DNA of 61,650 bases from a virus (Duplodnaviria > Caudoviricetes): IMG/VR virus record IMGVR_UViG_3300032324_000012, positions 1 through 61,650 of that record; one strand, written 5' to 3'. Positions 12,751 to 31,303 of the stretch are shown here, in pieces. Every line of letters begins with the position of its first letter. Positions within the stretch are counted from its first letter, which is position 1. The position numbers and the translations under genes were made by a program. The notes beneath the pieces were generated by a model. That model did no database searches. It was given only the letters and a program-made list of their open reading frames with translations, and was not told the DNA's origin.

Positions 12751-12758
12751 GAGGTTGA

Positions 12759-13298: not shown

Positions 13299-13304
13299 GA
13301 TTTT

Positions 13305-13382: not shown

Positions 13383-13386
13383 TGTG

Positions 13387-13415
13387 TTTATAACACGGTA
13401 TTTTTAGGCGTGCAA
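13387..13415 (-). promoter_or_regulatory. Sigma70-like promoter
   Basis: TTGCAC-17 bp-TATAAA on the minus strand, with TG extended -10. Confidence 0.6.
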
Positions 13416-13455
13416 CATTTATTTTGTTGTCACAATTTGTTGGCATCATCAAAAC

Positions 13456-14266: not shown

Positions 14267-14268
14267 TA

Positions 14269-14502
14269 TCATTTGTTGTCAGCAGCTTCTGCGGCGGCTT
14301 CAACTTCAGCGCCGTCTAACTCTTCTTCAGTATCGTCGTCTTCAAACTCGTCGTCATCAGGCAAAGCTACGTACTCAACAGCCCAACCGTAATTTTCCTG
14401 AAATTGCACAAATTCTTGAAAAATTTGAATCATGTCAAAGTCGTTTGTCTCAATAGACAATTTATTGTTGCCAAAAAAACCAAATTCCATTTCAAATTTC
14501 AT
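14269..14502 (-). CDS. Small highly acidic protein
   Basis: 77 aa with D/E-rich C-terminus (DDDEFEDDDTEEELD); agggg RBS; own terminator. Confidence 0.65.
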   Translation of the reverse strand: MKFEMEFGFFGNNKLSIETNDFDMIQIFQEFVQFQENYGWAVEYVALPDDDEFEDDDTEEELDGAEVEAAAEAADNK

Positions 14503-14568
14503 GATATGCCCCTGTGTTTATGCAACCACATTGGCTGCAAATTGATCGTAGTTTAACTTTGTGACAAG

Positions 14569-14592
14569 AAAAAGGCCACCCGAAGGTGGCCT
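14569..14592 (-). terminator. Rho-independent terminator after major capsid gene
   Basis: Minus strand AGGCCACC-TTCG-GGTGGCCT-TTTT. Confidence 0.8.
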
Positions 14593-14619
14593 CAAACTTA
14601 CCCTTGTGGGGCTGTTTTA

Positions 14620-15528: not shown

Positions 15529-15540
15529 GGTTTATGCTCC

Positions 15541-16149
15541 TTATACGCCAGTAGAGTTGTTGTACTGGTGCATAGTTGCGTTAATCTTGACGATAAACTC
15601 AACAAATGTATCAGCGCCTGTTGCTGTCTCGCGGACCACATCAATGATACGGATAGGCAACGTATTGGTCGTATCTTGCGTACCTTGATCAATCGCTACA
15701 GCGGAGTTACCAGTGATGGTAGAGCCAGCGTTTTGAATCAGAGCAATGTTATTACCAATAGCAGAAATGCCCATTCCAGTCACAGTTGTGCCTGAAGAAC
15801 AAGAAACTACTTGGAACAGCGTATCAGGATCATCAGCGACTACTGCGAAGATTTTAGTCCCCGAAGCAATTGCTTGACTGGCTGGATAGTACTGTTGTTG
15901 CTGGAGTTGACCAGTTGACTGATTAAAAAACTGAACGCCTAAGAAAATACCGCAAGGCGTGGCAGTTGTTGTGCCAGTGTCCTTTTCAATAGTTCCATCA
16001 GCAATACGTTTTACCAAGTCACCATAAAAAATGCTAGTGTTGTAACCACTTGCAATTTGCATCAGGCGGGTTGCGCCTGCAAATACCTGTCCACCAATCA
16101 GGTTTACAGGCTTTAGCCCGTATGGGGCGTCGACCGTGGGATAAGCCAT
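15541..16149 (-). CDS. Capsid-associated (stabilising/decoration) protein
   Basis: DAPYGLKPV...IFYGDLV...DDPD; directly upstream of the MCP. Confidence 0.6.
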   Translation of the reverse strand: MAYPTVDAPYGLKPVNLIGGQVFAGATRLMQIASGYNTSIFYGDLVKRIADGTIEKDTGTTTATPCGIFLGVQFFNQSTGQLQQQQYYPASQAIASGTKIFAVVADDPDTLFQVVSCSSGTTVTGMGISAIGNNIALIQNAGSTITGNSAVAIDQGTQDTTNTLPIRIIDVVRETATGADTFVEFIVKINATMHQYNNSTGV

Positions 16150-16166
16150 ATTAAGCTCCTATAAAA

Positions 16167-16616
16167 TTAAGTACCTTTGCCAAAAGTCACCTTCGTTGTT
16201 CGCTCATTGAAAAGCGGCATACGAGGATCGTTTTCGCGCATGAGATTGTGGTCTACCGAGCGCATCTGAGACACAGCTTGATCTTGAAAGAACCCGTTGC
16301 GATCTTCTACCATCTCGGAAGGGGTTTTGCAAAGCATCAAACCACCGATAACGACGTTGTCTTTGAAGCGATCATTCTCGACTCCAGCAACAAAAATCTC
16401 GGGGTGATCAACTGCCTTAACGGGCTCCCAGCCCTCGCGGAGTTTTAGGGACACATTCATAGCATCTAACTCGCCACGTGTGCTGATTCGAACCCAATGA
16501 AAGTCATAGCCCGCCTCTGGATTAGGAGTGGGTAACGTATCTGGACGAATCCAATTACGCTTACGAGCCGTTTGTTCACGAGTTTCCAGTTCACGATTTA
16601 GTCTGTTCTCAGCCAT
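16167..16616 (-). CDS. Head-module protein
   Basis: 149 aa; GYDFHWVR...REGWEPV...GGLMLCK; between scaffold and capsid genes. Confidence 0.65.
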   Translation of the reverse strand: MAENRLNRELETREQTARKRNWIRPDTLPTPNPEAGYDFHWVRISTRGELDAMNVSLKLREGWEPVKAVDHPEIFVAGVENDRFKDNVVIGGLMLCKTPSEMVEDRNGFFQDQAVSQMRSVDHNLMRENDPRMPLFNERTTKVTFGKGT

Positions 16617-17649
16617 TTTGTTTCCTTATTTCCAATGCAACCTGTTTGGCGTAGTCTTCTAAAGACACTCCGAGTTTTTTTGCTAATGCAACCTGCGTGC
16701 GTGTCAGCGTAATCTTTTTAGGGGCGACGCTTCGTGTAGCCGGTGCAACAACATTCGCCTTACGGCGAGGCTCTTCAGTCTCTAGGTCGTTGTTCTCGTC
16801 AGTAAACTGTTCTGGGAACAACTGTCGCATACGAGAGTTGATCTTCTCGTAGTAATCGTCAGATTGCGGGTTGACGCCCTGTTTGACAAGTTTTTGGTGC
16901 AACCCCAGCGCAAAACTTGTCATCTCATCGTCTTCTCCAAACCACTTATTCTTGGATTGCCAAGCTGTAGCCCGAGTGTCAACAGACGGTTCTGGGGTGT
17001 TGTAAGTAGTTTGTACATCAGAATCATCCTCCTGTAAAGGGGGTATCGTGATGTTTTTTACGCGATCTGCTTTTAGCGTAGCGTTTGTAAGTGCTTCTTG
17101 CGCTTCTACAAGGGCTTTCGAGTCCCCTGCTTCGTACGCACGTCGGTACTTACCCTTTGCATTAAGAAGTTCTTGGTCAACCTGTTTCTTGGCCTGTTCA
17201 AGCAAAACTTCTTGGTTTTTATTGACCGTACCTTTAAGCTGTTTGTTTTCCGCAACAAGCTGCTGGGCATACCGCAGTGCCTCTTGACGTTCACGTTCCG
17301 CAGACTCAGCGGCGCGGCGTTGGTCATGGAAACCTTTGCTGAAGTGTTGCAGTCGTTTCTTGACGCGTTCGGAGTATTGCTCCATCTCGTCGTCGGTCAA
17401 CTCCATAGGAGCCTTGGACTTTTGCTTGCCCCGATCATCTTCATCACGATCGTCAACCACTTCAATGTCTAAGTCAGACTCTTCCTTCTCAGCCTTTGCA
17501 GGCTTTGCTGGCTTGTCTTCCTTCAAAGGGTCTGATCGACCCTCGATGGTAATTTCAAAATCACCATTGGCTTTTTCCTTTACGCCCTTGTCAGCGGCTT
17601 CCGCTTTGTCGGGATCGGGGAACTCAAACTGTACTTGTTGAAACGCCAT
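16609..17649 (-). CDS. Putative capsid scaffolding protein
   Basis: Acidic N-terminus, long coiled coil, C-terminal LTRTQVALAKKLGVSLEDYAK. Confidence 0.7.
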   Translation of the reverse strand: MAFQQVQFEFPDPDKAEAADKGVKEKANGDFEITIEGRSDPLKEDKPAKPAKAEKEESDLDIEVVDDRDEDDRGKQKSKAPMELTDDEMEQYSERVKKRLQHFSKGFHDQRRAAESAERERQEALRYAQQLVAENKQLKGTVNKNQEVLLEQAKKQVDQELLNAKGKYRRAYEAGDSKALVEAQEALTNATLKADRVKNITIPPLQEDDSDVQTTYNTPEPSVDTRATAWQSKNKWFGEDDEMTSFALGLHQKLVKQGVNPQSDDYYEKINSRMRQLFPEQFTDENNDLETEEPRRKANVVAPATRSVAPKKITLTRTQVALAKKLGVSLEDYAKQVALEIRKQNG

Positions 17650-17659
17650 AGTTCATTCC

Positions 17660-18037
17660 TTATGCACGCGTTACGCCACGCGGATCGGCAACAACGGCAT
17701 CAATTGAGTCGTCGTTCATAAGACGATATTCGACACCATTTACTCGGACACGGGTGCCAGAGTTAGCACGGAACACCACGTAATCGCCAACTTGACACCA
17801 TGGCCCATCTGGGTAACGGTCTTTGTCGGAGTACGCTTGTGCTCCCATATCGAGTACCAAACCAGTCACAGTCATGAGCATTTCTTCATTAATTGTTTTC
17901 TGGGCCTTGATGATTCCCATATCACCGATTGTTTCCTCAATTTGAGGTAGGGCTATAAGCAGCTTGTAGCCGACGGGTTTTGGAAGTTGTAATTCCAATT
18001 CGTCATCGGTAACAGCGGTTTGAACTTCAATTGTCAT
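17660..18037 (-). CDS. groES: GroES-like co-chaperonin
   Basis: Likely start 18037; PVGYKLLI...GII...VLDMG...VGDYVVF...GTRVRVNGVEYRLMNDDSIDAVV matches the Cpn10 pattern. Confidence 0.8.
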   Translation of the reverse strand: MTIEVQTAVTDDELELQLPKPVGYKLLIALPQIEETIGDMGIIKAQKTINEEMLMTVTGLVLDMGAQAYSDKDRYPDGPWCQVGDYVVFRANSGTRVRVNGVEYRLMNDDSIDAVVADPRGVTRA

Positions 18038-20666: not shown

Positions 20667-22214
20667 TCAGTAGTAACCGCCACGACGACGTGACTTAAAG
20701 TATTTAATTTCATCAGGCTCGTCAGACGGCAGTCTGATAAACCCACCCTGACGGAATCTCATGAGTGCCATCACTGCAGAGTCCACCAAGTCATCGTTGC
20801 TCATGAACGGAAATCCTGCGATCTCCTCCACAACTTCTTCAGCCCAGCGGGTTTGTGGAACCCAGCACAACCTAGAAGCCACGATGTCTGCCACGGAGTT
20901 TAACCGCGCTAACTTATCACCGCTACCCCTGTGTGGGGTGTACTCCCCCACGGGCATACCCATGCGGCGCAGTTCTTGATACAGTGCAGTGCCAGAGGAC
21001 TTCTTCTCCACGATGAACGCATCTGGCTCCCAGTCTTTGTATTCTTCCAGTGCCAACTTCTTTAGTTCAGGAAACTCAATCCGTTTTTTGATAGCGTTGA
21101 GCAGGATGATGTTGTGGCATCCTTCTTCCTCGTTGAAGAACACTCCCCATGTTGTAAGTGCAGTGTAGTCGGCACGGTTGTGGCTTTCGGCTGCCGCGTC
21201 CAAACTCATGATCACGTACTCACAGCGGGGCGGCTCGTCTGCCTCCCAGATGTTCCACCACTCACGCTTGACAACTGATGCTTCTTCTGATGTGGGATTT
21301 TGCTGGTACTGCGCGTTCCACTGGAACGTAGGCATCGACGCCTTTGTTCTGTACAGTGCTTTAAGGTCAAAGAATTCTGGCCACAGGGGTTTCTCGTTGT
21401 CCGTTCCCTGATTGAAGATAGCAGGAAACTCAACTACCTCGTACTGGTCGGCATCCTCGTTCTTGCTCATGTCCCCCGTGACGCGCCCTGTCAGGTCGTT
21501 TTGATGCCATCTGGTTTGAATAATGGCGACCCGTCCGCCCGGCATAAGACGAGTACGGGCTCCGTATGTGAACCACTCGTACGCTTTGTCAAACACATCA
21601 AAATTTCCGTTGATGATGTCCTGTTCATTGTGAGGATCGTCCACGAGTAACAAGTCAGCCCCCCGACCAGCCAAAGCAGAACCAACGCCGCAAGCGAAGT
21701 ACTCGCCGCCCATGTTTGTGTTCCATCTTCCGGCTGACTTGCTGTCAATGGCAAGGGTGACTGTTGGAAAAATTTGTTTGTATCTGTCATCGTCAATGAT
21801 GTTCCTAACTTTGCGGCCGAAGTCCACAGCGAGGTCTGTGGTGTGGGAAACCATCAGCACCTTCTTATTAGGGTATTTACCTATGAACCAAGCAGGGAAA
21901 TAAATAGAAACAAGTTGGGATTTGCCGTGACGTGGTGGCATATTCACGCACACCCTGTCTTTTTTACCCTCAGCAATGTCCATTAACAAGTCAGCCAGTA
22001 TGCGGTGATGCTTACCCACCTTGTAGTCAGGCTGCATGTGCTTACAAAACTCAATCAGATCGTCGTAACATGCACGGGCAGTCTTGCGGCTGTCCAAAAT
22101 GTCTGCAATCTTGTCGATCTCCGCCTGTTCTTCGGGCGAATACGAGTCCAAGTTGTCCAGCATTAGCCGGATTTCCTCTTCCGTAAAATCTAAAGTGTCA
22201 ACTTGGGTCAACAT
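20667..22214 (-). CDS. terL: Terminase large subunit
   Basis: Walker A MPPRHGKS, Walker B LLLVDDP, QTRWH coupling motif, nuclease MSLDAA and DDLVDS. Confidence 0.95.
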   Translation of the reverse strand: MLTQVDTLDFTEEEIRLMLDNLDSYSPEEQAEIDKIADILDSRKTARACYDDLIEFCKHMQPDYKVGKHHRILADLLMDIAEGKKDRVCVNMPPRHGKSQLVSIYFPAWFIGKYPNKKVLMVSHTTDLAVDFGRKVRNIIDDDRYKQIFPTVTLAIDSKSAGRWNTNMGGEYFACGVGSALAGRGADLLLVDDPHNEQDIINGNFDVFDKAYEWFTYGARTRLMPGGRVAIIQTRWHQNDLTGRVTGDMSKNEDADQYEVVEFPAIFNQGTDNEKPLWPEFFDLKALYRTKASMPTFQWNAQYQQNPTSEEASVVKREWWNIWEADEPPRCEYVIMSLDAAAESHNRADYTALTTWGVFFNEEEGCHNIILLNAIKKRIEFPELKKLALEEYKDWEPDAFIVEKKSSGTALYQELRRMGMPVGEYTPHRGSGDKLARLNSVADIVASRLCWVPQTRWAEEVVEEIAGFPFMSNDDLVDSAVMALMRFRQGGFIRLPSDEPDEIKYFKSRRRGGYY

Positions 22215-22860
22215 CGTCGTCAAAAGGGGTGTTTTCAGCCAAAATATCGGCTTTTTCTGCTGTTTTTGGCATATTTAGCCCCAACTCTGCATCCACATCA
22301 ATGACGTCGCCCGCCAATACAACTTCGGCGTCCTGAATTTCAGGCTGGGCAACCAATCTTTGCAGTTTTGCACGCAGTTTGCTGCGCAACTCGTCGGTTG
22401 TCTGGTGCGTAATTGTAATTTCTGTGCGGTCTGTGAACAACCCCACGTCTGAAATTTTGCCCAGTAACTCTAATGCACGGATTCTGATGCGGGGGTCAGG
22501 GTTAATTGACTCTTCGATTAGTCTATTAGTTACTGCATGTCGTATTTCAACCGCATGATTGACCACTGCACGCCCATATTCGTCTAGGTACGACCGAATG
22601 TTCTGCAAAGAAGCAGGGGTCATCGCTGATGTATTTACGTTGTTGGCTTTTTGCGACGTTGTTTGTGGGTTGGCCGCATACGCTGTAGTTAACGCAGCAG
22701 CAACTTCTTTGTCTTCAGATGTTTCTGGGGGAATCTCTAAGCCATGGTCTTTCAACAGTTCCATTGAACGGCATGCAGCCTCGGCCCGCTCCCGCAGGTC
22801 GACATACGCCATGTCAGGCGTGATCTCAATACCCAGTTCGGGCATTAACTCTAGTTCCAT
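22198..22860 (-). CDS. Putative terminase small subunit
   Basis: Overlaps terL start; RIRALELLGKISDVGLF helix; likely start MELELMP at 22860. Confidence 0.55.
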   Translation of the reverse strand: MELELMPELGIEITPDMAYVDLRERAEAACRSMELLKDHGLEIPPETSEDKEVAAALTTAYAANPQTTSQKANNVNTSAMTPASLQNIRSYLDEYGRAVVNHAVEIRHAVTNRLIEESINPDPRIRIRALELLGKISDVGLFTDRTEITITHQTTDELRSKLRAKLQRLVAQPEIQDAEVVLAGDVIDVDAELGLNMPKTAEKADILAENTPFDDDVDPS

Positions 22861-23200
22861 ATTTTTCGCAAGTCTTAGTGACCGATGCACCAGTATACAC
22901 ATAGAACAAAATTTTTTGCAATGGGGGGTACTTAAAAAGATGACGGGGGGTGTTTCTGTATATGTTAGTCAACCCGCCGAAACGTACCTGTAATAACACA
23001 GGGGGTGGCATGTTATAGCGTGATAGGTCACGTGGGCTTTGCTGCAGAGTCAGCGTGGTTTGTATTTGGTCTGGCTGGGATTCGTTCGTCTGTAATAGTA
23101 TACCTACGACAGCCACGGGACTCCTAACCATACAGCGGGGGGTGCCGTACCGGTGGGTCACGCCATAACCCGATTCGGCGCGTTAGCCCCTGCCCCATTT

Positions 23201-23217
23201 GTTAGGCGACGCCTAAC
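23201..23217. repeat. 17-bp palindrome copy 1
   Basis: GTTAGGC-GAC-GCCTAAC. Confidence 0.9.
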
Positions 23218-23255
23218 AGAACAACACGATCTGATATGAATCGATACGTTTTCCC

Positions 23256-23284
23256 TTGACATGACAAGTCATCAGGCGTACAGT
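23256..23284 (+). promoter_or_regulatory. Early sigma70 promoter P1
   Basis: TTGACA-17 bp-TACAGT. Confidence 0.75.
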
Positions 23285-23354
23285 TCAGTCATCGGTTAAG
23301 CAATGCGGACACAAGAAGCGCGCTTAACTGATACATGTCTCGAAAGGACACAAA

Positions 23355-23858
23355 ATGAAAGCAGTTAAATTATCCGCCGCAACGATCACCGCCGTTGTTG
23401 ATACTCTCAAAGCTGAAGCTGGCGTTGCAAAACGTTGGGTGAAAGCGGCTGACATGCTTCGTGCAGAGGGTATGACAAGTGAGTTGTTGTTGAACGACAA
23501 GGAGGTTCGCGATGGGTTCAAGAAAGACGTTGTGTTGTTGTCTTTCACCAAAACAGAGCAGAGCATCATGGCACTGCCTGCAACGACCCTGAGCGATGAG
23601 CAGAAGGTCACGAAACGTTGGGTACAACAGCAGATCGGTTCCCGCCTGAATCGCGTTGTGCAACACGTCAAGAAAGCAGAAGACGATGAGTTGTTAAGCG
23701 ATGACGATCGCGGTGCCAAGAAGGTCAGCGACATGGCAACGCGCCTGAAGCGTGACCTGACAAGTTGGATTGACAAGGTTGAGAAAGCAGAAGCAGTGAC
23801 ATTCAGTGCCACTGAGATGGTCAAGTATTTGAAAAGCGCAAGCGCGTTGATCAAGTAA
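23355..23858 (+). CDS. First early gene, helical protein of unknown function
   Basis: 167 aa; aagga RBS; monocistronic with own promoter and terminator. Confidence 0.8.
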   Translation: MKAVKLSAATITAVVDTLKAEAGVAKRWVKAADMLRAEGMTSELLLNDKEVRDGFKKDVVLLSFTKTEQSIMALPATTLSDEQKVTKRWVQQQIGSRLNRVVQHVKKAEDDELLSDDDRGAKKVSDMATRLKRDLTSWIDKVEKAEAVTFSATEMVKYLKSASALIK

Positions 23859-23863
23859 CCCCC

Positions 23864-23895
23864 AAGCCCCGCCCTAAAAAGCGGGGCTTTTTTTT
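23864..23895 (+). terminator. Rho-independent terminator
   Basis: AAGCCCCGC-CCTAAAAA-GCGGGGCTT followed by a T run. Confidence 0.85.
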
Positions 23896-24014
23896 CGTCT
23901 TCATTTTTTGATTTTATGTATTCACCGCCTAACATCTTGATGCCAGTTCTTGGAGTAGCGTGGTGTGAAGTTGCACTGTGTTGCGCAATACCCCAAACCT
24001 GGATCGGTGGAGTT

Positions 24015-24031
24015 GTTAGGCGTTGCCTAAC
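24015..24031. repeat. 17-bp palindrome copy 2
   Basis: GTTAGGC-GTT-GCCTAAC. Confidence 0.9.
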
Positions 24032-24255
24032 AAAGTGATGCCAGTTCTCACAGTAGCGTGGCGCGGCGTCAGTTCTAAAGTTCGCTATTGACTAAGTTCT
24101 AACGTAACTTTTTAATGGGCTTAGTAAAGTTCGTTTTATTTAAATTCCTGCGTTGTTATGGCGTGTTTGAAAGTTCTTTTTTTGCATAAAGTTCTTATAA
24201 AGTTCTTATAAAGTTCGCACTAGCCGCGTACTTTATATTTTTGTGGCAGATCATT

Positions 24256-24272
24256 GTTAGGCGTTGCATAAC
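24256..24272. repeat. 17-bp palindrome copy 3 (one mismatch)
   Basis: GTTAGGC-GTT-GCATAAC. Confidence 0.8.
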
Positions 24273-24481
24273 AGATTGTTTCTTTCCTATGCAATAGTGT
24301 ATTATCTTATCTAATCTTTATAGTTTTATAAAGTTCTTTTTAGGGTCGGGTAGTCCGAAGGGTAAAATTATTTTCCTCAAAAAGTTTTTAGGAAAGTTCG
24401 CGCTTGACCGAGGGGGCACAAGCAATTCTAGGGAGGGGGTGTATACCCGACCCTACAATAAACAACCGAACTCTTTAACCA

Positions 24482-24494
24482 AATCAAGCACTTG
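24482..24494 (+). promoter_or_regulatory. IHF consensus site
   Basis: AATCAAGCACTTG matches WATCAANNNNTTR. Confidence 0.5.
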
Positions 24495-24566
24495 CAAAAT
24501 CGTCATAAAGAACTTTATAGGAACTTATACTTCTCGCCACATTTCGATACAATCAGCCACAAACAC

Positions 24567-24595
24567 TTGACATACACCACCAAACATGTTATACT
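24567..24595 (+). promoter_or_regulatory. Early sigma70 promoter P2
   Basis: TTGACA-17 bp-TATACT with TGn extended -10. Confidence 0.85.
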
Positions 24596-24647
24596 ATAGG
24601 TTGTTCAGTAGGAATTCGCCTAGTGAACTAACAAACCCAGTAACCAT

Positions 24648-24664
24648 GTTAGGCACCGCCTAAC
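24648..24664. repeat. 17-bp palindrome copy 4
   Basis: GTTAGGC-ACC-GCCTAAC. Confidence 0.9.
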
Positions 24665-24684
24665 AAAACCAAGAAAGTAACTTT

Positions 24685-24921
24685 ATGGGACACAATCGAC
24701 GACTCAAACCAATCTGCGATCGGTGCGGTGATACGTACTCCGCTAAACGTGCCAATGCAGGTTATCACATCTGCTTGCTCTGCGGGGAAGATGCGGCACG
24801 TGAGGAACGCAAGGGATGGTGCATTGCGCAGGAATACGGCAAGGGCAACTATCAGTTCATCACAACGGCCAGTGCATCAGTTGCACTCAAACAAACCAAT
24901 CAGAAACAACTTAGGGGATAA
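24685..24921 (+). CDS. Small Zn-finger (CxxC...CxxC) early protein
   Basis: CDRCG...CLLCG; downstream of P2. Confidence 0.7.
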   Translation: MGHNRRLKPICDRCGDTYSAKRANAGYHICLLCGEDAAREERKGWCIAQEYGKGNYQFITTASASVALKQTNQKQLRG

Positions 24922-24923
24922 AC

Positions 24924-25115
24924 ATGGAACGTGCTGAAGTAGACATGAGGGATAAAACTGTGGAGAGCATCAGTTACCCAAATCCTTGGAGTGAGGGCAT
25001 CACCATTACATTCACCGATGGTAGCAAGTTAAATGTATACGAACGTATGCAAGCAGGCGAGATCATGGTGACGTACAACGGCAACGAAGTTATACACGAT
25101 AGGGATTCAGAATGA
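24924..25115 (+). CDS. Hypothetical early protein
   Basis: 63 aa, agggg RBS. Confidence 0.6.
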   Translation: MERAEVDMRDKTVESISYPNPWSEGITITFTDGSKLNVYERMQAGEIMVTYNGNEVIHDRDSE

Positions 25116-25288
25116 CTGACTTATTATTACAAGACGAGTCCGAGGGGTACGAGCCCCAACGACTTAGCCGATGGTTTGCCAGCAAGCCGGACGCAAGGCA
25201 CGTGGTGCGCAAGCATCACACAAACGAGTGGGCATGGCACGAGGCCAAGGCACAGGAACATGACGCACGAGGAGAAGAGACATGCTAA
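25112..25288 (+). CDS. 58-aa early protein (not in ORF track)
   Basis: ATGA overlap; MTDLLLQDESEGYEPQRLSRWFASKPDARH...GEETC*. Confidence 0.55.
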   Translation: MTDLLLQDESEGYEPQRLSRWFASKPDARHVVRKHHTNEWAWHEAKAQEHDARGEETC

Positions 25289-25374
25289 CAACGTGGGAGA
25301 AGTTCGAACGTGCGGTGTTGTTGGTGGCAGTGATCGTGCTCATGCTCGACTTGCTTTACTGGCGACCATACTGA
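25282..25374 (+). CDS. 30-aa single-TM early peptide (not in ORF track)
   Basis: ggag RBS; MLTTWEKFERAVLLVAVIVLMLDLLYWRPY*. Confidence 0.6.
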   Translation: MLTTWEKFERAVLLVAVIVLMLDLLYWRPY

Positions 25375-25395
25375 CTATCGGATTGTATCTAATCC

Positions 25396-25424
25396 TTGAC
25401 ATACGTATCATACTGTGGTACAAT
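25396..25424 (+). promoter_or_regulatory. Early sigma70 promoter P3
   Basis: TTGACA-17 bp-TACAAT with TGn extended -10. Confidence 0.85.
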
Positions 25425-25475
25425 ATATGTATCGAGTGGGAATTCATCTGCTCGATAAAGCGAAAGTAAAAACGT

Positions 25476-25492
25476 GTTAGGCACCGCCTAAC
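25476..25492. repeat. 17-bp palindrome copy 5
   Basis: GTTAGGC-ACC-GCCTAAC. Confidence 0.9.
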
Positions 25493-25527
25493 TATTTAAA
25501 TGACTGTAAACAACTTAGGATATTATC

Positions 25528-26442
25528 ATGAACGCTTCATCACCTGAAACTAACGTAGTTACTACGAACACACCATCCATCTCAACATCAGCAATGCTTG
25601 TTGAATTATCGATCAGCACATGGACAGGACGCAAACTGGACAAACGTGCCTCGCAAGACGTAACCGCCCAAGCCTCTGCGCAAAAGGGTGTTGCCAACGT
25701 CAATAAGAAGTTACTCGGTGACTGTGCCGAATTGGATGCGGTACAGAAGTTCACAGCCAATGCACGTAACGTGCACTACGCCATGACAATGCCATGGTCA
25801 GACACAGGTCTGCGCTTATTGCCCACGACCCAATACTTCAAGTACCACAGGGAGATGACTACCCTGCAAGCGGAGTACGAACGTCAGGTTAACGTGTTTC
25901 TGCAAGCATACGATTGGGAGATCAGCCAAGCGCAGGTCAAACTCGGTGACTTGTTTAACTCGGACGAGTACCCGACAGCGGACAGCCTCACATCTAAGTT
26001 CAAGTTCAAGATGAACTACATGCCACTTGCCGATGCGGGTGACTGGCGTGTGGACATTGGCAACGAGGCCAAGGACGTGTTGGCATCTCAGTACGAGACG
26101 TACTACACAACACAGTTGCAAACCGCAATGGGTGACGTGTGGTCACGAGCACATGATGCACTGGCAAAGATGTCAGAGCGTCTTGACTATGCAGATGGCC
26201 CGACAAAGAAGATATTCCGCGACTCACTGGTTGACAACGTGGTGGACATCATCGAACTACTCGGTGCATGCAACATCACAAACGACCCGACCATGGAGTT
26301 GGCACAGAAACAACTTAGCACAGCCATGCGAGGCATCACACCCGATGCACTGCGTGAGGACGCTTACCTGAGAGCAGAGACCAAGCGTCACGTGGACGAG
26401 GTCAAGAAGATCATCAACAACTTACCATCACTCGGCATGTAA
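25528..26442 (+). CDS. Helical protein, DUF3150-like partner of AAA/VWA module
   Basis: LVELSISTWTGRK...TMPWSDTGLRLLP...FNSDEYP; directly upstream of the AAA ATPase; family assignment is inference. Confidence 0.6.
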   Translation: MNASSPETNVVTTNTPSISTSAMLVELSISTWTGRKLDKRASQDVTAQASAQKGVANVNKKLLGDCAELDAVQKFTANARNVHYAMTMPWSDTGLRLLPTTQYFKYHREMTTLQAEYERQVNVFLQAYDWEISQAQVKLGDLFNSDEYPTADSLTSKFKFKMNYMPLADAGDWRVDIGNEAKDVLASQYETYYTTQLQTAMGDVWSRAHDALAKMSERLDYADGPTKKIFRDSLVDNVVDIIELLGACNITNDPTMELAQKQLSTAMRGITPDALREDAYLRAETKRHVDEVKKIINNLPSLGM

Positions 26443-26459
26443 GTTAGGCACCGCCTAAC
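26443..26459. repeat. 17-bp palindrome copy 6
   Basis: GTTAGGC-ACC-GCCTAAC immediately after the TAA stop. Confidence 0.9.
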
Positions 26460-26488
26460 AACTTAACTTAACTTAACGAAAGACTATC

Positions 26489-27583
26489 ATGGCAAATTCA
26501 GCAATCTCTATGTATGCACTCTCACTTGACCAATGTGAGAACGCCATCCGCTTAGGCGGTAACAAGCGCACTGTACTTGTACAGGGTCACATGGGTACAG
26601 GCAAATCATCCCTGCTCAAGTCATTGGGCAAGGCCATGCCGAAACACGTGATGTGTTACTTTGACTGCACGACCAAGGACTTGGGCGACATCACTATCCC
26701 TCAGTTGCAGACTATCGACGAGCAAGGCTACGTACGTTACGTGACCAACGAAGAGTTGGGTCTGCACTTGGGCAAAGACATCATCTTGATGGTGGACGAG
26801 TACGGCAAGGCTAACCCTGCGGTGAAGAACGCGATGTTGCGCTTGTTGCTCGAACGCAAGATGGGTGGTTACGAGTTATCACCTGACTCGATTGTGTTTG
26901 CCACAACTAACCTTGGGGCAGAGGGTGTGGGTGACATGTTGCCCCCTCATGCACGTAACCGCATCTCGGTGGTGACATCGCGTAAGTCTACGAACATGGA
27001 ATGGATTGAATGGGGTATCAACAACAACATCGATCACACATTGCTTGGTTGGTGCAAAGACAACCCACAGTTGTTCGCATCGTTCGAGGACGTGAAAGAC
27101 CCTGAGAACAATCAGTACATCTTTCACCCCAAGGCACCACGCACTGCGTTCGTAACACCACGTTCACTCGAAGCCGCATCTGATTGGCTGAAGATACGTG
27201 ATGGCATGGACTCGGTCACGTTAACAAGTTTACTCATGGGCACGATAGGCGAGAGGGCCGCGATGGACTTGATGGCGTTTGTCAAATTGTCTGATCAGTT
27301 GCCCACGTTGCAATCGATCAAGGACGACCCGATGAACGCGAAGGTGCCCGACAGTTCGGCAGGTGTATGTATGGTGATCTATCGTACGTTGGCATCTATC
27401 GAACGTGATTGGGTTGACTCATGGATGGATTACTTTGGACGTTTGGACAAAGAAGCACAGGGTTACTTTGCCAATGGCGTACGTAGTCCCAAGTACAACA
27501 AGCAGAACATCGTGATGACTAACAAGAAGTTCACGAAGTGGGCGCTTGACAACAACCACATGTTTGGTGGTGACAAAAAATAA
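26489..27583 (+). CDS. MoxR/dynein-related AAA+ ATPase
   Basis: Walker A GHMGTGKS, Walker B ILMVDE, sensor ATTN, TPRS motif. Confidence 0.85.
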   Translation: MANSAISMYALSLDQCENAIRLGGNKRTVLVQGHMGTGKSSLLKSLGKAMPKHVMCYFDCTTKDLGDITIPQLQTIDEQGYVRYVTNEELGLHLGKDIILMVDEYGKANPAVKNAMLRLLLERKMGGYELSPDSIVFATTNLGAEGVGDMLPPHARNRISVVTSRKSTNMEWIEWGINNNIDHTLLGWCKDNPQLFASFEDVKDPENNQYIFHPKAPRTAFVTPRSLEAASDWLKIRDGMDSVTLTSLLMGTIGERAAMDLMAFVKLSDQLPTLQSIKDDPMNAKVPDSSAGVCMVIYRTLASIERDWVDSWMDYFGRLDKEAQGYFANGVRSPKYNKQNIVMTNKKFTKWALDNNHMFGGDKK

Positions 27584-27600
27584 GTTAGGCACCGCCTAAC
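27584..27600. repeat. 17-bp palindrome copy 7
   Basis: GTTAGGC-ACC-GCCTAAC immediately after the TAA stop. Confidence 0.9.
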
Positions 27601-27617
27601 AACTAATGGAGAACGAC

Positions 27618-28880
27618 ATGCTAATGATTAACAAACAACTTACAGCCGAGCAACGCTTGGAACGTGCGATCGTAGAGATCATGCACAACGACAGATACTT
27701 TGCACTTGCAGGTGTCTTGATGATTGGTAAGCGCGAGGTGGTGGATGACTTACCAACTGCCGCAACCAATGGACGTGACGAGTTCTATGGACGCAAGTTT
27801 GTGGAATCCCTCAACGATGCCGAGTTGCGCTTTCTTGTATTGCACGAGTGTTATCACAAGTTATACAGGCACTTGCATACATGGCGTCATCTGTACGACG
27901 AGTACCCACGTCTGGCAAACATGGCGTGTGACTATGTGATCAATATCAAGTTACTCGATGACAACAGCGATGGCTTTGCACGTATGCCCATGCGTGATGG
28001 TAAGCAGGTGGGATTGTGCGACCCCAAGTATCGGGGCATGGACAGCGCACAGGTGTACAACTTACTCAAGGAAGAAGCCGAATCCGGTGACGGGGAAGGT
28101 GACGACACGGGCGAGGGCGATGGTCAAGGTGATGGGCGCGGCAACGGAAGCTCGGGAACTGGCATCTCAGATGACCCCCATGGTGGCTTGGACTCGCACG
28201 ATTGGGAAGGCGCGAAGGGATTGTCCGACGAAGATCAAAAGGGGTTGGAACGTGACATCGATGAAGCGATACGTCAAGGTGCCTTGGCCGCAGGCAAGAT
28301 GGGCTCGGGCGGCAACCGCGACTTGGAAGCATTGATGACACCGAAGGTGGATTGGCGCGAAGCATTACGCGAGTTCATAAACACTACGTGTGCAGGGAAT
28401 GATTACTCAACGTGGAGGCGGCCCAACCGCAGGTTTGTGTCATCAGGCTATTACATGCCATCAGGTGTAAGCGAACGTGTGGGCGAACTAATCATCGCTA
28501 TCGATACATCAGGCTCGATCGGTGGGGCTGAGTTGGCTAAGTTCTTGAGCGAGGTCAAGGGTATCTGCGACACAGTACACCCCGATGCTATCCGCTTACT
28601 GTATTGGGACACAGAGGTGTGCGCGGACGAGCGGTATGTGGGTGCGGAGATTGACAACTTAACGAGTTCTACCAAACCCGAGGGCGGAGGTGGCACCACA
28701 GTTGAATGTGTACCCGCATACATCACAGAGCACAGCATCAAAGCGCAAGCCGTTGTTGTGTTGACCGATGGATATCTCGGTGGCTCATGGGGTCAATGGT
28801 CTATGCCCGTGTTGTGGGCAATCGTAGGTGGTAACAAAGAAGTAGCCGATGTTGGCAAAACAATTCATGTTAACGATTGA
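27618..28880 (+). CDS. Metallopeptidase (HExxH) plus VWA domain protein (DUF2201-like)
   Basis: PTAATNG, LHECYH, NMACDYVIN, acidic G/D linker, MIDAS DTSGS, GGGT, VLTDG; start 27618 follows the GGAGA RBS. Confidence 0.85.
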   Translation: MLMINKQLTAEQRLERAIVEIMHNDRYFALAGVLMIGKREVVDDLPTAATNGRDEFYGRKFVESLNDAELRFLVLHECYHKLYRHLHTWRHLYDEYPRLANMACDYVINIKLLDDNSDGFARMPMRDGKQVGLCDPKYRGMDSAQVYNLLKEEAESGDGEGDDTGEGDGQGDGRGNGSSGTGISDDPHGGLDSHDWEGAKGLSDEDQKGLERDIDEAIRQGALAAGKMGSGGNRDLEALMTPKVDWREALREFINTTCAGNDYSTWRRPNRRFVSSGYYMPSGVSERVGELIIAIDTSGSIGGAELAKFLSEVKGICDTVHPDAIRLLYWDTEVCADERYVGAEIDNLTSSTKPEGGGGTTVECVPAYITEHSIKAQAVVVLTDGYLGGSWGQWSMPVLWAIVGGNKEVADVGKTIHVND

Positions 28881-28892
28881 AGGGAGAACGAA

Positions 28893-29861
28893 ATGAGATT
28901 CAATACATTCGATTCAGTAGTCAAGTGGTACGAAGCAACCAAGCCTGTGGTCAGCGTGAGGTTCACGAAGGAAGATGACATTCGCCCAATCAGCGAGCGT
29001 CGCTACACCTACAGACGTATTAAGAAGTACGACGAGAACTGCTATGCGTTGCTCGATGGTGATTACTCTGAGCGCAACACAAGCGCGGAGTATGAGAAGG
29101 CCATGGCACCAATCGTGTGGACACGTGACCCCGAGAGTGGTGATACGTTTGTACGTATCCGTAATGGTGTTGCACCATACCCGCACCATGGACGCTATCG
29201 GTTCTTGCAATGGAACTTACCGCAGACCATGCACTTTGCTATTGATCAGAGCGGTGTGCAGAAGGTCAAGGTATGTACGAGCAACGCACTACGTGAGTAC
29301 CAAGCGTTCAAATCCTGGGATGAGTTTGTGTTACCCAAGACTAAGTTCTCATGGAATCACAACAACAAGCGACCGAATGGCGCGGACGATGGATTGTTCT
29401 TGACGTTCAAGTGCAACGAGGATGGCACGTTCACAAGGTGGGGTGAGAAGATCGCTGTGCGCACACGCAACATCGACATGGACTTGAAACGCGAGTGGAA
29501 GCCGCGACTGCACGAGTTCTATATGTTCATGGCATCTATCGTACCAATGCTTGAGTTCACGTGGTCAACACACAACGAGTACATCAATCAGATTGACGAG
29601 TGGAAAGAAGCCAATGGTGGTGGGCATGCGTTTGGTACTGCATGGGGCAGGACATCTCTGTATGGCATACCAAAAGAAGTTGCACGTGATGTTGTGAAAG
29701 ACACCGAGCATCCGCTACGTGTGGCAGTTGCCGCATTGATAGCGCGAGAGACCGATGGGCATCGACAGATCAAGTCAGAGGAACAGTTGCGTGCGGTACG
29801 TAAGAAGTACAACTACGCTATGAATAAATTTTTACACATGCAAGAAACGAAGGAGATTTAA
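28893..29861 (+). CDS. Hypothetical early protein
   Basis: 322-aa ORF with GGAGAACGAA leader. Confidence 0.8.
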   Translation: MRFNTFDSVVKWYEATKPVVSVRFTKEDDIRPISERRYTYRRIKKYDENCYALLDGDYSERNTSAEYEKAMAPIVWTRDPESGDTFVRIRNGVAPYPHHGRYRFLQWNLPQTMHFAIDQSGVQKVKVCTSNALREYQAFKSWDEFVLPKTKFSWNHNNKRPNGADDGLFLTFKCNEDGTFTRWGEKIAVRTRNIDMDLKREWKPRLHEFYMFMASIVPMLEFTWSTHNEYINQIDEWKEANGGGHAFGTAWGRTSLYGIPKEVARDVVKDTEHPLRVAVAALIARETDGHRQIKSEEQLRAVRKKYNYAMNKFLHMQETKEI

Positions 29862-29862
29862 T

Positions 29863-30846
29863 ATGTCATACATTCACACTACAGTAGCACGTATCAATAA
29901 AGATACTGCCGATTACATCGAGCGGTTCAATAATCGTGTCTTAACGACAGACGATGCAACCAAAGATGCTATGCAGATATACATCAATAACACGCGGGTG
30001 TTTGACGGACTGCACGTTGGTAAGAAGTTAGGCACGTTCTGCGACGCTATCCTCAAGGCCAACCGCCATGTGAAGTTCGGTGTTGCCAAGACTATCAAGG
30101 GTGAGTTCATTCACGGCACGAATCGTCAGGCACTAGCAGAGGTGTGGGTGTACATGCCTGAGCATGAGTACGCCATGATGCGTGTGGGATATGCCGACTA
30201 CGCTGTGAAGGGTAGTTCAGAATCTAAGTTCGGTGTGTACTCACGGCTACTACAGAACAACAAGTTTGACTCGCAACGCGATCAGTACTACATGGTAACG
30301 TCTGACGACTTAGACCGCATCATGAAAACTGTGAAGAAAGTCATGCGACCATACGCACCGCATGAAGCGGCTAACGTGGTGTTCGAGGTATACCAAAGCA
30401 AGGTACACAACAATGTGTGGACAGCCACGTCTGAGGCACGTGATGCGAAGGACGCCGCGATAGGGCTTAACGACTTACGCAATGAGTTGTTTGCACTGTA
30501 CGACTTGGGCTATGAGTTTGCATCCGAGACCTTGAAGGACAAGGTGGGCAAGTGGAAGAGGGCGGTAACTGCATTGCACGAAGCCGAAGCCAAGAAACGC
30601 AACGCATACTTTGTAAGTGTGGTACTGCGCGGTGAAGAGTTACTGTGCAACGTGATGACTGTGGATGATGTCAGGAAGGTACACAATATCAAGGACACAA
30701 ACGCCACACAAACATTCAAGATGGAGGACTTGCCCGAGGACATCGCGGAGAAGGTCGCGACCTTGGGTATGGTAGACAAGGGGCACTACGTCGAGGACGT
30801 AGGTATGAAGGTATCTGATACTACGTTTTGGGTTGATCGTACATGA
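29863..30846 (+). CDS. Hypothetical early protein
   Basis: 327 aa with aaggag RBS; C-terminus LPEDIAEKVATL...VEDVGMKV...FWV resembles that of the next gene. Confidence 0.8.
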   Translation: MSYIHTTVARINKDTADYIERFNNRVLTTDDATKDAMQIYINNTRVFDGLHVGKKLGTFCDAILKANRHVKFGVAKTIKGEFIHGTNRQALAEVWVYMPEHEYAMMRVGYADYAVKGSSESKFGVYSRLLQNNKFDSQRDQYYMVTSDDLDRIMKTVKKVMRPYAPHEAANVVFEVYQSKVHNNVWTATSEARDAKDAAIGLNDLRNELFALYDLGYEFASETLKDKVGKWKRAVTALHEAEAKKRNAYFVSVVLRGEELLCNVMTVDDVRKVHNIKDTNATQTFKMEDLPEDIAEKVATLGMVDKGHYVEDVGMKVSDTTFWVDRT

Positions 30847-31250
30847 AAGAGTTCCAAGAAGGTGTAACTATCAATCAGGCGATACGCTATCTGATAACAG
30901 AACACGTATCGCGGGACGATCGACTGCGCTTACTCAACAGGGTATGGCAGGTGGACATACGCAGTATGTCATTCAAGATGTTGGAGAACATACCCGTGGT
31001 TACTGACGACAGTATCTACCGAGTAAGTGTTTGTCCTGATGGCGTTGATGTTGTTTGTTTCGGAATGGGTGTTGACACCATCCATGATGGGCATTATATT
31101 AACGCTGACGTCCTACCCAAATGGGTACAGGAACGCCTTGCTGTATTGATGATGATGACTAGCACCCCTCCAACAGAAGAAGTGGAAGGTGTCGGTCGCA
31201 GAATATCTCGTGACGTGTATTGGGTATACAAGCCCGATGGCGTTGTGTGA
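30843..31250 (+). CDS. Hypothetical early protein
   Basis: 135 aa, ATGA overlap; LPKWVQERLAVL...VEGVGRRI...YWV. Confidence 0.75.
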   Translation: MKEFQEGVTINQAIRYLITEHVSRDDRLRLLNRVWQVDIRSMSFKMLENIPVVTDDSIYRVSVCPDGVDVVCFGMGVDTIHDGHYINADVLPKWVQERLAVLMMMTSTPPTEEVEGVGRRISRDVYWVYKPDGVV

Positions 31251-31256
31251 TGTGTT

Positions 31257-31273
31257 GTTAGGGACTCCCTAAC
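31257..31273. repeat. 17-bp palindrome copy 8 (symmetric variant)
   Basis: GTTAGGG-ACT-CCCTAAC; the inner pair is swapped in both arms. Confidence 0.85.
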
Positions 31274-31303
31274 ATTTTTTAACTAAGAACGAAGGAAACT
31301 AAA

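Follow-up and report, generated by a model that had tools for sequence, protein, structure and literature searches.

Two early leaders of an uncultured freshwater phage have a composite structure consisting of two independent conserved modules: hairpin A, a real RNA element at the predicted start of the transcripts, and palindrome B, a short inverted repeat that recurs through the early region with arms specific to each phage. Such leaders look like a combination of message protection and a phage-specific protein site rather than a put-type antiterminator, which the earlier note on this DNA had suggested. The window (the whole stretch of 61,650 nucleotides analysed here) is the complete 61.6-kb genome of this phage. 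IMG/VR contains at least 291 of its relatives, and the closest cultured kin have only ~30-37% protein identity. Relatives that are 85-99% alike were seen as assembled contigs in one metatranscriptome and in three runs labelled RNA-Seq (rated probably DNA). A blastn search against GenBank phages using positions 24300-26500 gave no match, and no tRNA genes were found. The Rfam E-value scan of 22000-29000 returned four weak matches, none of which was near the leaders or reached the gathering score. In the main texts (supplements aside) of the literature on phage intergenic palindromes, on DUF3150 and phage, and on cultured cyanophage names, nothing was found on this clade or element.

Organization of the early leaders

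Both direct reading and a scan identified P2 and P3 as near-consensus sigma-70 promoters. Each is followed by the same layout, as had been described previously: a 26-nt hairpin (A), 19 nt and GTTAGGCACCGCCTAAC (B). The A stems comprise 10 positions each, with one G.G mismatch behind P2 and three G.U pairs behind P3, and the loop AATTCR is indeed common to both. In the P2 leader, both the minimum-energy fold and the centroid fold leave the spacer unpaired; in the P3 leader, the centroid fold does so. A further promoter, P1, drives a single 167-aa gene with its own strong terminator at 23864-23889. The P1 stem-loop starts at the predicted +1 (-19.6 kcal/mol, z -4.65) and does not have the hairpin-A loop. 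The promoters, hairpins and adjacent genes are as follows:

23256..23332, + strand: promoter P1 (23256-23284) with its own 42-nt 5'-terminal stem-loop (23291-23332)
24567..24595, + strand: early promoter P2; TTGACA at 24567-72, 17-nt spacer, TATACT at 24590-95, TG upstream; 11/12 consensus
24603..24628, + strand: hairpin A of P2; apical GGAAUUCG; -10.9 kcal/mol, z -5.2; 40.3 bits with covariance model R1
24629..24647, + strand: A/C-rich unstructured spacer of 19 nt, the length of which is not kept in relatives
24685: ATG of the gene behind P2
25396..25424, + strand: early promoter P3; TTGACA at 25396-401, 17-nt spacer, TACAAT at 25419-24, TG upstream; 11/12 consensus
25431..25456, + strand: hairpin A of P3; apical GGAAUUCA; -10.2 kcal/mol, z -3.3; 41 bits with model R1
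25528-26442: DUF3150 gene, start ATG at 25528
26489-27583: AAA ATPase gene

The view that no further promoter follows until ~36.7 kb had to be abandoned, since an 11/12 promoter-like site is present at 31072-31100 and a terminator-like hairpin at 31256-31274. Judging from its sequence, the latter resembles an intrinsic terminator that separates the early operon from the replication genes. No strong terminator was found within 25.4-31.25 kb, and 31256 is the only strong terminator-like site downstream of the leaders.

Conservation of hairpin A

To examine covariation, 25 hairpin-A leaders from related phages (24 distinct rows) were aligned. Pairing was observed in 89% of cells, compared with 29-49% when the partners were slid, and the covariation score was 0.508 versus 0.272 in shuffles, none of which (0/500) reached the observed value. 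The covariation expected among homologous leaders was thus found, with compensatory changes on both sides at five of the ten pairs. There were 27 G.U cells and one C.A cell (the latter counted among itemised pairs), and the remaining non-pairs were A.A, U.U or C.U. This excess of G.U over C.A implies strand-specific pairing and points to RNA.

A covariance model of hairpin A (R1) had strong matches in the window at the two leaders only. In 80 related loci it gave 32 matches, every one on the gene strand, and in all 32 the first paired base lies 6-7 nt past the -10 of a TTGAC-N-TAnnnT promoter, which is the predicted +1. Among 50 distinct P1-, P2- or P3-type leaders, 49 have a predicted RNA in which nucleotide 1 or 2 is paired, versus 293 of 500 random places in the same loci, a control that is already high (59%). 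Three features of hairpin A support the earlier suggestion of an RNA-level element at about +1: its covariation, the strand specificity of its G.U pairs and its constant distance of 6-7 nt from the -10 hexamer, the start sites being predicted ones.

Alignment positions G12, G13, A14, A15, U17 and C18 are invariant or nearly so in both promoter types, and the loop with its closing pairs is near-invariant across two otherwise different stem families. In other kin, motifs related to the apex (GATAAAGCG and GGAAAGCG) are found within larger leader structures, either in the loop or in the 5' internal loop. The order promoter, A, B is kept in all 28 leaders examined. The exact 19-nt spacing between A and B holds for the window and its nearest kin, but not over the 28 leaders, in which it ranges from 5 to 28 nt.

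Palindrome B in the window and in related phages

A scan of the whole window for the B motif, with at most three mismatches, revealed 14 strand-matches at 8 places (0.09 expected; 0/100 shuffles reached 14). These are seven copies and one terminator-like variant, all in the early region and mostly located between a stop codon and the next ribosome site. B, taken earlier for the second hairpin of the leaders, is not specific to them: exact copies also occur at 26443-59 and 27584-600, and variants at 23201, 24015, 24256 and 31257. The RNA fold of B has -7.8 kcal/mol (z -4.6). The copies are listed below; no strand is assigned to the palindrome except for the terminator-like variant.

23201..23217: B with centre GAC; starts 55 bp upstream of the P1 -35 hexamer, a position kept in relatives
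24015..24031: B with centre GTT, in a non-coding, iteron-rich region
24256..24272: imperfect B with one G.A mismatch, which is kept in three relatives (L059, L060, L062)
24648..24664: leader copy of P2, GTTAGGC-ACC-GCCTAAC; ends 20 nt before the ATG at 24685
25476..25492: leader copy of P3; ends 35 nt before the ATG at 25528
26443..26459: exact copy; its first base directly follows the DUF3150 stop codon
27584..27600: exact copy; starts at the base after the AAA ATPase stop codon and ends 5 nt before the next ATG
31256..31280, + strand: B-like palindrome GTTAGGG-ACT-CCCTAAC followed by T6; hairpin at 31256-31274, 6/7 stem pairs as in B

A general role of B as an intrinsic terminator was rejected, because among 41 copies in six genomes an uninterrupted T run was found only at 31257.

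Among 80 relatives, each phage has its own arm sequence, which is invariant within the phage and present in 2-12 copies per locus. The arm types include GTTAGGC, GTTAGTC, GTTAGTG, GTTATAC, GTTAGGG, GTAGTCC and TTATAGC, as well as others. Even close kin with 94-97% identical neighbouring proteins have different arms at all copies. The centres, on the other hand, vary freely within one genome: ACC, GTT and GAC all occur in the window, and L080 has six different ones. Centres may be found in both orientations on one strand of one operon (e.g., CCG and CGG in L098). In 382 perfect-arm copies the centre is 3 nt long in 297 and 4 nt in 46, with lengths of 0-2 and 5 nt being rarer, and centres of 3, 4 or 5 nt co-occur within one genome. 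Several phages have full palindromes without a free centre, such as AATT in 6/6 copies of L133. The non-Watson-Crick cells of 454 distinct copies (14 G.T, 14 A.C and 56 other) indicate neither wobble nor strand bias. In addition, there are mixed half-sites (GTTAGTG with CCCTAAC, and GTTAGCC with GACTAAC), in which pairing is lost and the halves are still recognisable.

With regard to location, 258 of 389 perfect copies are found between genes, another 37 extend across ORF ends and 52 are within the first 25 codons, in loci where ~83% of the DNA is called coding. Distant kin account for 48 of the 389 as copies within the first 25 codons, on the gene strand and mostly in the DUF3150 gene. B starts -5 to +6 nt from the stop codon in 138 of 213 copies with an upstream stop, and ends 12-22 nt before the start codon in 107 of 196 copies with a downstream start. 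In six whole genomes, all copies (about 5-12 per genome) are confined to one early region of ~3-12 kb. Many kin also have a copy ~43-56 bp upstream of the P1 -35, where no transcript is predicted. A distant cultured relative, Planktothrix phage Pra-JY27, contains 12 copies of GTTCAG-N-CTGAAC in 18.8 kb, all of which are at gene junctions, most ending 22-23 nt before an ATG.

Palindrome B as a DNA site or an RNA element

Our best joint explanation, which we consider to be a little short of an even chance, is that A provides 5' protection of early mRNAs and that B is the site of a phage-specific protein, preferably in duplex DNA. B would be recognised, in a sequence-specific manner, by a factor that the phage encodes and that varies in specificity between phages, and it would mark leaders and stop-to-start junctions of early genes only. 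A symmetric protein bound to it as double-stranded DNA might block or tune early transcription in the manner of an operator or a 'stoperator'. The anatomy, conservation, covariation and distribution of the elements are observed; from these we infer the existence and identity of a binding factor and the DNA or RNA level of its action. Invariant arms with free centres, the lack of wobble or strand bias, the spacerless palindromes and the copy upstream of P1 all suggest a DNA site. What argues against it is the variable length of the centre, which would be hard to accommodate for a rigid dimer and easy for a hairpin. Moreover, the copies sit where an RNA element would be placed, and one variant forms the stem of the terminator-like hairpin at 31256. 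No DNA-binding partner was identified among the candidates examined. For B itself, the DNA-site reading is preferred and the RNA-level reading is nearly as likely.

In the latter, B would act in RNA as a 7-bp hairpin at early junctions that is bound or cut by a phage-specific RNA-binding protein, A again being a conserved 5' cap; as a complete account we consider this possible, if on the unlikely side. Candidate partners would be an antitermination partner of the N/boxB kind, a translational repressor, or a hairpin-specific endoribonuclease that splits early polycistronic RNA. The positions near stop (138/213) and start codons (107/196), the gene-strand copies in the first 25 codons in distant kin (48/389) and the 12 junction copies of Pra-JY27 are consistent with such an RNA element, as are the centres of 3, 4 and 5 nt in one genome, the B-like stem at 31256 and the presence of B after A in 28/28 leaders. 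However, RNA hairpins are usually recognised through the loop, and B has the reverse pattern, its loops being least and its stem sequence most conserved. G.U is not in excess over A.C (14 vs 14), the mixed half-sites break pairing while keeping recognisable halves, and spacerless palindromes exist. Furthermore, the conserved copy upstream of P1 lies outside any predicted transcript, and none of the early genes was recognised as coding for an RNA-binding protein or a nuclease.

A more elaborate version, which we regard as unlikely, is that B and an early protein form a phage-specific RNA-level system. The protein would read the stems of junction hairpins and either cut polycistronic RNA at gene boundaries or ride the polymerase past 31256, with the loop of A as a loading point on nascent RNA. 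There would be at least 10 mutually exclusive specificities among close relatives.

Comparison with mycobacteriophage repeats

A precedent for B as a DNA site is found in Cluster O mycobacteriophages. Their 17-bp repeat (7-N3-7) is a 7-bp inverted repeat around three free bases, in which the arms are invariant within a genome and the centre varies, and its authors predicted that it is bound by a dimeric DNA-binding protein (PMC4351075). The centre lacks orientation bias, and many copies are intergenic or near gene 5' ends (PMC4351075). B likewise has 7-bp arms around ~3 free bases (297/382 centres of 3 nt), invariant within a genome. The copy numbers differ, with more than 30 genome-wide in Cluster O (PMC4351075) versus about 5-12 in the early region only for B. 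In contrast to the Cluster O repeat, the arms of B diversify between close relatives, its centre varies in length, and a copy follows every hairpin-A leader examined. We know of no function assigned to the Cluster O 17-bp repeats since 2015.

Stoperators of Cluster A phages, the sites of the L5 repressor, are thought to stop elongating polymerase (PMC9283540, in part). They are similar to B in that many copies of one phage-specific site are located in short intergenic gaps and near promoters (PMC9283540, in part), and 258/389 copies of B are intergenic. However, stoperators are asymmetric 13-mers oriented with transcription (PMC9283540), whereas B is symmetric. They are also bound by the monomeric immunity repressor of a temperate phage (PMC9283540, in part); the scanned proteins of the window included no recognisable integrase or repressor.

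Candidate partners of palindrome B

The P1 protein was considered as the B binder and stays a candidate. Its type does not cleanly follow that of B: proteins 66-77% identical to that of the window go with four arm types. Its residues 91-103 co-vary with the B type but also with lineage, so that this signal is confounded by ancestry. The model of the P1 protein is all-helical (pLDDT 80.9); a Foldseek search with it gave no match at E 0.001 or better, VIA-align returned only generic helical hairpins (Z up to 7.3), and Atlas gave weak leads only (DUF3102 and a Streptomyces phage repressor domain at 0.79). The first early gene encodes a Zn-ribbon protein, for which the nearest named cluster has a DksA/TraR zinc finger (score 0.89, a lead only). 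It was rejected as the binder, being without correlation to the B type. The 7-bp stem and 3-nt loop had raised the idea of a phage RNA polymerase with hairpin promoters. No polymerase domain was found in the 2086-aa, the 1473-aa or the other window proteins scanned, and this idea was dropped.

Possible role of hairpin A

Of the roles considered for hairpin A, 5'-end protection of early mRNAs is the most likely. The stem-loop would form from the very first nucleotides of the P2 and P3 RNAs, leaving a 5' end without a single-stranded tail, and may thereby protect these messages against the 5'-end-dependent decay carried out by RppH and RNase E. 5' structures stabilise because both enzymes require single-stranded 5' ends (PMC3997798, in part). 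The start sites and the stabilising effect are both predicted from sequence. Stabilising stem-loops of the ompA/papA type are similar to A in starting at the first nucleotides of the transcript without a single-stranded 5' tail; at the predicted starts, the pairing of A begins within 1-2 nt of the RNA 5' end. The conservation of A is likewise at the level of RNA structure, pairing rather than stem sequence being kept. The difference is the conserved apical loop of A, which such stabilisers do not need and which argues against a pure stabiliser. Given this conservation, something may dock at the apical GGAAWUCG too.

A decidedly unlikely alternative is that A serves chiefly as a regulatory site at which RNA polymerase or a host or phage protein docks, or as a DNA element of the initial transcribed region, with GGAAWUCG as the ligand site and 5' protection as a secondary effect. 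Such docking would agree with the near-invariant loop and closing pairs across two stem families, with the presence of GATAAAGCG and GGAAAGCG in larger leader structures of other kin, and with the Zn-ribbon product of the first early gene, again as a lead only. On the other hand, no ligand is known and the P1 5' hairpin does not have this loop. The strict start of pairing at the predicted +1 (32/32) fits 5' protection and would be superfluous for docking, and the G.U pairs speak against a purely DNA-level element.

Comparison with put and nut antitermination

The proposal of a put-like antiterminator unit was not borne out: B is dispersed, the spacer is variable, the stems are short and regular, and there is no match to an HK022 model. 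In such a unit, A and B, or A alone, would act in cis as an RNA that, like HK022 put, alters RNA polymerase without the help of a protein factor and suppresses both pausing and termination, a reading that has in our view only a small chance of being right. In the case of put, the beta-prime zinc-binding domain mediates the effect on termination. The ~70 nt of put RNA fold into two stem-loops, long and irregular, whose residues together make contact with RNA polymerase (PMC9378689, in part). Similar to put, the leaders lie promoter-proximal behind two early promoters, have two stem-loops and show conservation at the RNA level. From A to B they span 62 nt, near the ~70 nt of put, distant kin have irregular 5' structures of 58-70 nt, and the terminator-like site at 31256 lies between early and replication genes. 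However, instead of ~70 nt of irregular stems, A has 26 nt with 10 positions and B 17 nt with 7 bp, both short and regular, and the spacer between them is unstructured. Its length of 5-28 nt in kin is at odds with adjacent stems that form the polymerase interface jointly (PMC9378689, in part). Moreover, put is one dedicated element per early operon, which A fits (behind P2 and P3 only) and the dispersed repeat B (seven copies and a variant) does not.

Searches led to the same result. Two elements that lie next to the HK022 operators and resemble each other served, with a predicted structure, to build a covariance model (R2); these elements are not annotated as put. This two-sequence model had no match in 24567-25527 at E up to 10, its best match elsewhere having E 0.18, and model R1 had no match at the HK022 elements. 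No Rfam family matches the leaders, and there is no strong terminator inside 25.4-31.25 kb. In addition, P1 combines a 5' hairpin with a strong terminator that is evidently obeyed, which implies that a 5' hairpin in this phage does not imply antitermination.

In the nut system, lambdoid phages use boxA and boxB with the N protein. The early leaders described here are similar in that a shared part (A) is followed by a phage-specific hairpin (B) whose specificity diversifies between relatives. By contrast, the boxB loop is the conserved recognition element, whereas the loops of B vary in one genome and its stem is fixed; B also recurs at every early junction, and no N-like protein was recognised among the scanned early proteins.

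Finally, we give almost no credence to a functionless relic of a promoter-region duplication, which would account for TTGACATAC, the loop and B being common to P2 and P3. The conservation data already contradict it: across many phages the two leader types are maintained as distinct lineages that show compensatory changes, and within a genome the arms of B change together at every copy.

Implications for early gene expression in this phage clade

What appeared to be a curiosity of two copies has become a clade-wide rule: strong early promoters are predicted to start their RNA inside a hairpin (49/50 leaders), and early gene junctions carry a palindrome with arms that are fixed per phage and change together from one phage to another. 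A coordinated change of this kind is the hallmark of two recognition partners under diversifying selection, such as a repressor and its operator, N and nut, or a polymerase and its promoter. Many natural specificity variants and a cultured cyanophage with the same layout make the partner of B and the level of its action testable. If the protein code at the RNA level were true, it would be a natural, diversifying hairpin-protein code that governs early expression across a large freshwater phage clade, and a cultured Planktothrix phage would have a distant counterpart of it.

Organization of the early region

The window, which is 61,650 bp long and has direct terminal repeats, makes up a complete virus record of IMG/VR; public runs label it a freshwater metagenome phage. 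The minus strand encodes the late and structural functions (terminase, portal, head, lysis), and a plus-strand block at 24.6-43.1 kb encodes small early proteins, a DUF3150 protein, an AAA ATPase and a VWA/DUF2201 protein and, further on, DNA polymerase, exonuclease, helicase and primase. Among the window proteins scanned, none was recognized as a phage RNA polymerase, an integrase or a repressor. The nearest cultured phages showed only 30-37% protein identity, and the early region had no DNA-level match in GenBank phages. By searching IMG/VR with the DUF3150 protein we confirmed 291 relatives, from which 80 loci (identity 62-99%) were kept for analysis. Upstream of the DUF3150 gene, almost all of these 80 loci run in the same order, from a strong sigma-70-type promoter through a structured 5' leader and then a short palindrome to the Shine-Dalgarno site and the start codon. 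The RNA data were assembled contigs only, from one metatranscriptome and three RNA-Seq-labeled runs rated as probably DNA; these contigs represent the early region in relatives and cannot show ends or strand.

The product of the first gene after promoter P2 (24685-24921) is 78 aa long and has a CxxC-15-CxxC zinc ribbon conserved clade-wide. Its nearest named Atlas cluster carries the DksA/TraR zinc finger; this high-scoring match, taken only as a lead, hints that the early protein binds polymerase.

Hairpin A at the predicted transcript 5' end

The earlier note described a common two-hairpin leader after promoters P2 (24567-24595) and P3 (25396-25424), and all of its coordinates and sequences proved correct when the window was re-read and scanned. 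Both promoters match 11 of 12 consensus positions and have an extended -10; downstream of each come hairpin A (26 nt, loop AATTCR), 19 nt and the 17-mer GTTAGGCACCGCCTAAC (element B). The leader folds are stable relative to shuffles, and the shared architecture is real and conserved in relatives. The proposal of an RNA-level element in these leaders holds for hairpin A, with its covariation and G.U asymmetry. B is a dispersed, phage-specific palindrome.

Hairpin A was aligned in 25 leaders of two promoter flavors, P2-type (TATACT, then ATAG) and P3-type (TACAAT). Pairing on its 10-pair structure was found in 89% of cells, compared with 29-49% when partners were slid, and five of the ten pairs had both-sided changes. 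The covariation score (0.508, against 0.272 in shuffles) was reached by none of 500 shuffles; the aligned sequences are related, so this control overstates independence, from which the slid controls and the G.U asymmetry are free. The cells contain 27 G.U and a single C.A (counted among the itemized pairs), other non-pairs being A.A, U.U or C.U. Such an excess of G.U over C.A on one strand is expected of RNA and not of a duplex DNA site. A covariance model of A gave strong matches in the window at the two leaders only, and 32 matches in 574 kb of related loci, every one on the gene strand and with its first paired base 6 or 7 nt past the -10 hexamer. This is the usual distance at which sigma-70 polymerase starts, and A is thus predicted to begin at the transcription start. 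Nucleotide 1 or 2 of the predicted RNA is paired in 49 of 50 distinct P1-, P2- and P3-type leaders, versus 293 of 500 random places. Hairpin A is an RNA element located at the predicted transcript 5' end.

A third early promoter bears on its function:

23256-23284, plus strand: P1, promoter of a single 167-aa gene
23864-23889: strong terminator that ends this gene

The P1 transcript also carries a stem-loop (42 nt) at its predicted +1. Because P1 serves one gene closed by a strong terminator, the 5' hairpin is typical of the early promoters of this phage in general, independent of operons that would need antitermination. Single-stranded 5' ends are required by both RppH and RNase E, which accounts for the long-known stabilization of mRNA by 5' structures (PMC3997798). 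By analogy, hairpin A, paired from the first nucleotides, would shield early mRNA from RppH/RNase E-dependent decay, and such 5'-end stabilization is our preferred candidate function. It leaves unexplained the near-invariant apex GGAAWUCG, common to both stem families of A, and the related motifs within larger leader structures of other kin. Both features would fit a ligand bound at the apex, which is a possible alternative.

The P1 gene (23355-23858) is mosaic across loci L059-L138, with two main types, and P1 proteins can be as low as 37% identical between phages whose DUF3150 proteins are 97% identical.

Distribution of element B

Element B is a palindrome of 7-nt arms around a short centre. 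Its family is far above chance in the window (14 strand-matches, 0.09 expected), at the following positions:

24648, 25476, 26443 and 27584: exact copies
23201 and 24015: copies with different centres
24256: imperfect copy
31257: variant sharing six of seven stem pairs with B, followed by T6

The 17-mer is not restricted to leaders; the copies at 26443 and 27584 have their first base directly 3' of a stop codon. The stretch separating B from the ATPase gene's ribosome site contains a triple AACTT repeat, AACTTAACTTAACTTAAC (26460-26477), and AACTTAGG is also found ahead of two other start codons (24908, 25512).

Every relative carries an arm sequence of its own (at least 10 arm types), with 2-12 copies per locus, invariant arms and variable centres. 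In L061 and L111, loci whose neighboring proteins are 94-97% identical to those of the window, both arms have changed compensatorily in every copy (GGC/GCC to GTC/GAC or GTG/CAC), which suggests that the arms are selected for a particular sequence matching another component of the same genome. As for such a partner, the P1 protein is mosaic, with an all-helical model for which no informative structural match was found, and arm type did not correlate with the zinc-ribbon protein.

In each of six whole genomes, every copy falls within a single early region of 3-12 kb. The 389 distinct perfect copies divide into 258 between genes, 37 across an ORF end, 52 within the first 25 codons, six within the last 10 codons and 36 at internal positions, in DNA with a coding share of ~83% by crude ORF calls. 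B starts -5 to +6 nt from the stop codon in 138 of 213 copies with a nearby stop, and ends 12-22 nt ahead of the start codon in 107 of 196; in 48 cases TAG within the left arm is the stop codon itself. B lies downstream of A in every one of 28 leaders, and the 19-nt spacing thought to be fixed applies to 10 of them, all nearest kin of the window, the overall range being 5-28 nt. B is a phage-specific module separate from A.

DNA or RNA level of element B

Sequence features give a slight edge to B being a duplex DNA site of a symmetric protein. Its stem is constant in sequence, with a free centre; the 65 imperfect copies among 454 have no wobble or strand bias (14 G.T, 14 A.C and 56 other non-Watson-Crick cells); mixed half-sites recur; several phages have palindromes without a free centre; and one copy lies upstream of P1, in a region without a predicted transcript. 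The Cluster O mycobacteriophage repeat is a parallel, predicted by its authors to be the site of a dimeric DNA-binding protein (PMC4351075). The main rival is that B acts as an RNA hairpin, for which speak the variation of centre length within one genome (3 nt in 297 copies, 4 nt in 46, other lengths rarer), the placement of copies between stop codon and ribosome site, and the one variant that is a terminator-like stem.

Comparison with put and nut sites

The put-like antiterminator reading of the leaders is not supported, chiefly on anatomy. The put RNAs of HK022 are described as ~70 nt, with two long irregular stem-loops that jointly touch the beta-prime zinc-binding domain, and one per early operon (PMC9378689). 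The leader stems here are instead short and regular, A and B are separated by an unpaired spacer whose length varies, and the second stem belongs to a dispersed repeat. Two mutually similar elements adjoin the HK022 operators (mean column identity of 80% for the two aligned sequences); a rough model built from these two, to which the record gives no put annotation, did not match the window leaders at E up to 10, nor did the hairpin A model match the HK022 elements. Homology to put is therefore only weakly ruled out. The combination of a common part (A) with a phage-specific hairpin (B) is an appealing parallel to a lambda-type nut site; unlike nut, B has variable loops and a fixed stem and is repeated at every junction.

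P3 was also thought to have no further promoter until ~36.7 kb. It heads no such unbroken stretch, because an 11/12 promoter-like site at 31072-31100 is followed by a terminator-like hairpin at 31256-31274. The site is near-consensus and lies inside an ORF (30843-31250), ~150 nt ahead of the B-like terminator at 31256; TTGAC-type sites occur in matching coding context in at least 10 relatives.

Other features of the control regions

At 24070-24350 and 24508-24526, repeats of AAAGTTC(T/G) and their complement AGAACTTT fill a ~650-bp non-coding region upstream of P2. They may form an origin or serve as regulator sites; in relatives the corresponding place is occupied by GAACATT-type repeats, in some downstream of a P2-type promoter. 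Of the pieces listed for its run, a 220-nt metatranscriptome contig (24148-24366) had the greatest depth, although contigs are no proof of transcription. A 20-nt inverted repeat (24333-24352 with 24444-24463, 85% complementary, 91 nt apart) has G-rich runs inside. In relative L062 a leftward promoter-like site begins just before the right arm of the repeat, so there may be a leftward structured non-coding RNA that also takes in B at 24256 and 24015. The divergent control region from the late leftward promoter (22921-22892) to P2 contains six GGGGG(G)TG runs, at 22925-23145 and 24411-24440.

On the minus strand, 22859-22921 comprises this late promoter, with TTGCAA, an 18-nt spacer and TATACT, and then CATCGGTC. 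(C)ATCG(G/A) is found at the predicted starts of the late leftward promoter, P1, P3 and the relatives' leftward promoters, and may be a preferred start-site context. A very stable hairpin (-28 kcal/mol, z -7.9) at 36886-36928, within the 220-nt gap ahead of the helicase gene and followed by TTTAT, could act as either a terminator or a leader. In its stem the 3' arm of hairpin A from P3 (TCTGCTCGAT) recurs, here perfectly paired.

Junction palindromes in a cultured phage

Element B is a diversifying junction palindrome specific to the early region, and the more interesting object here. A distant cultured relative, Planktothrix phage Pra-JY27, whose DUF3150 protein is 30% identical, carries GTTCAG-N-CTGAAC 12 times in 18.8 kb (copies within 620-18019 of that locus), always at gene junctions and mostly ending 22-23 nt before the next ATG. 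This cyanophage may offer an experimental system for junction palindromes.
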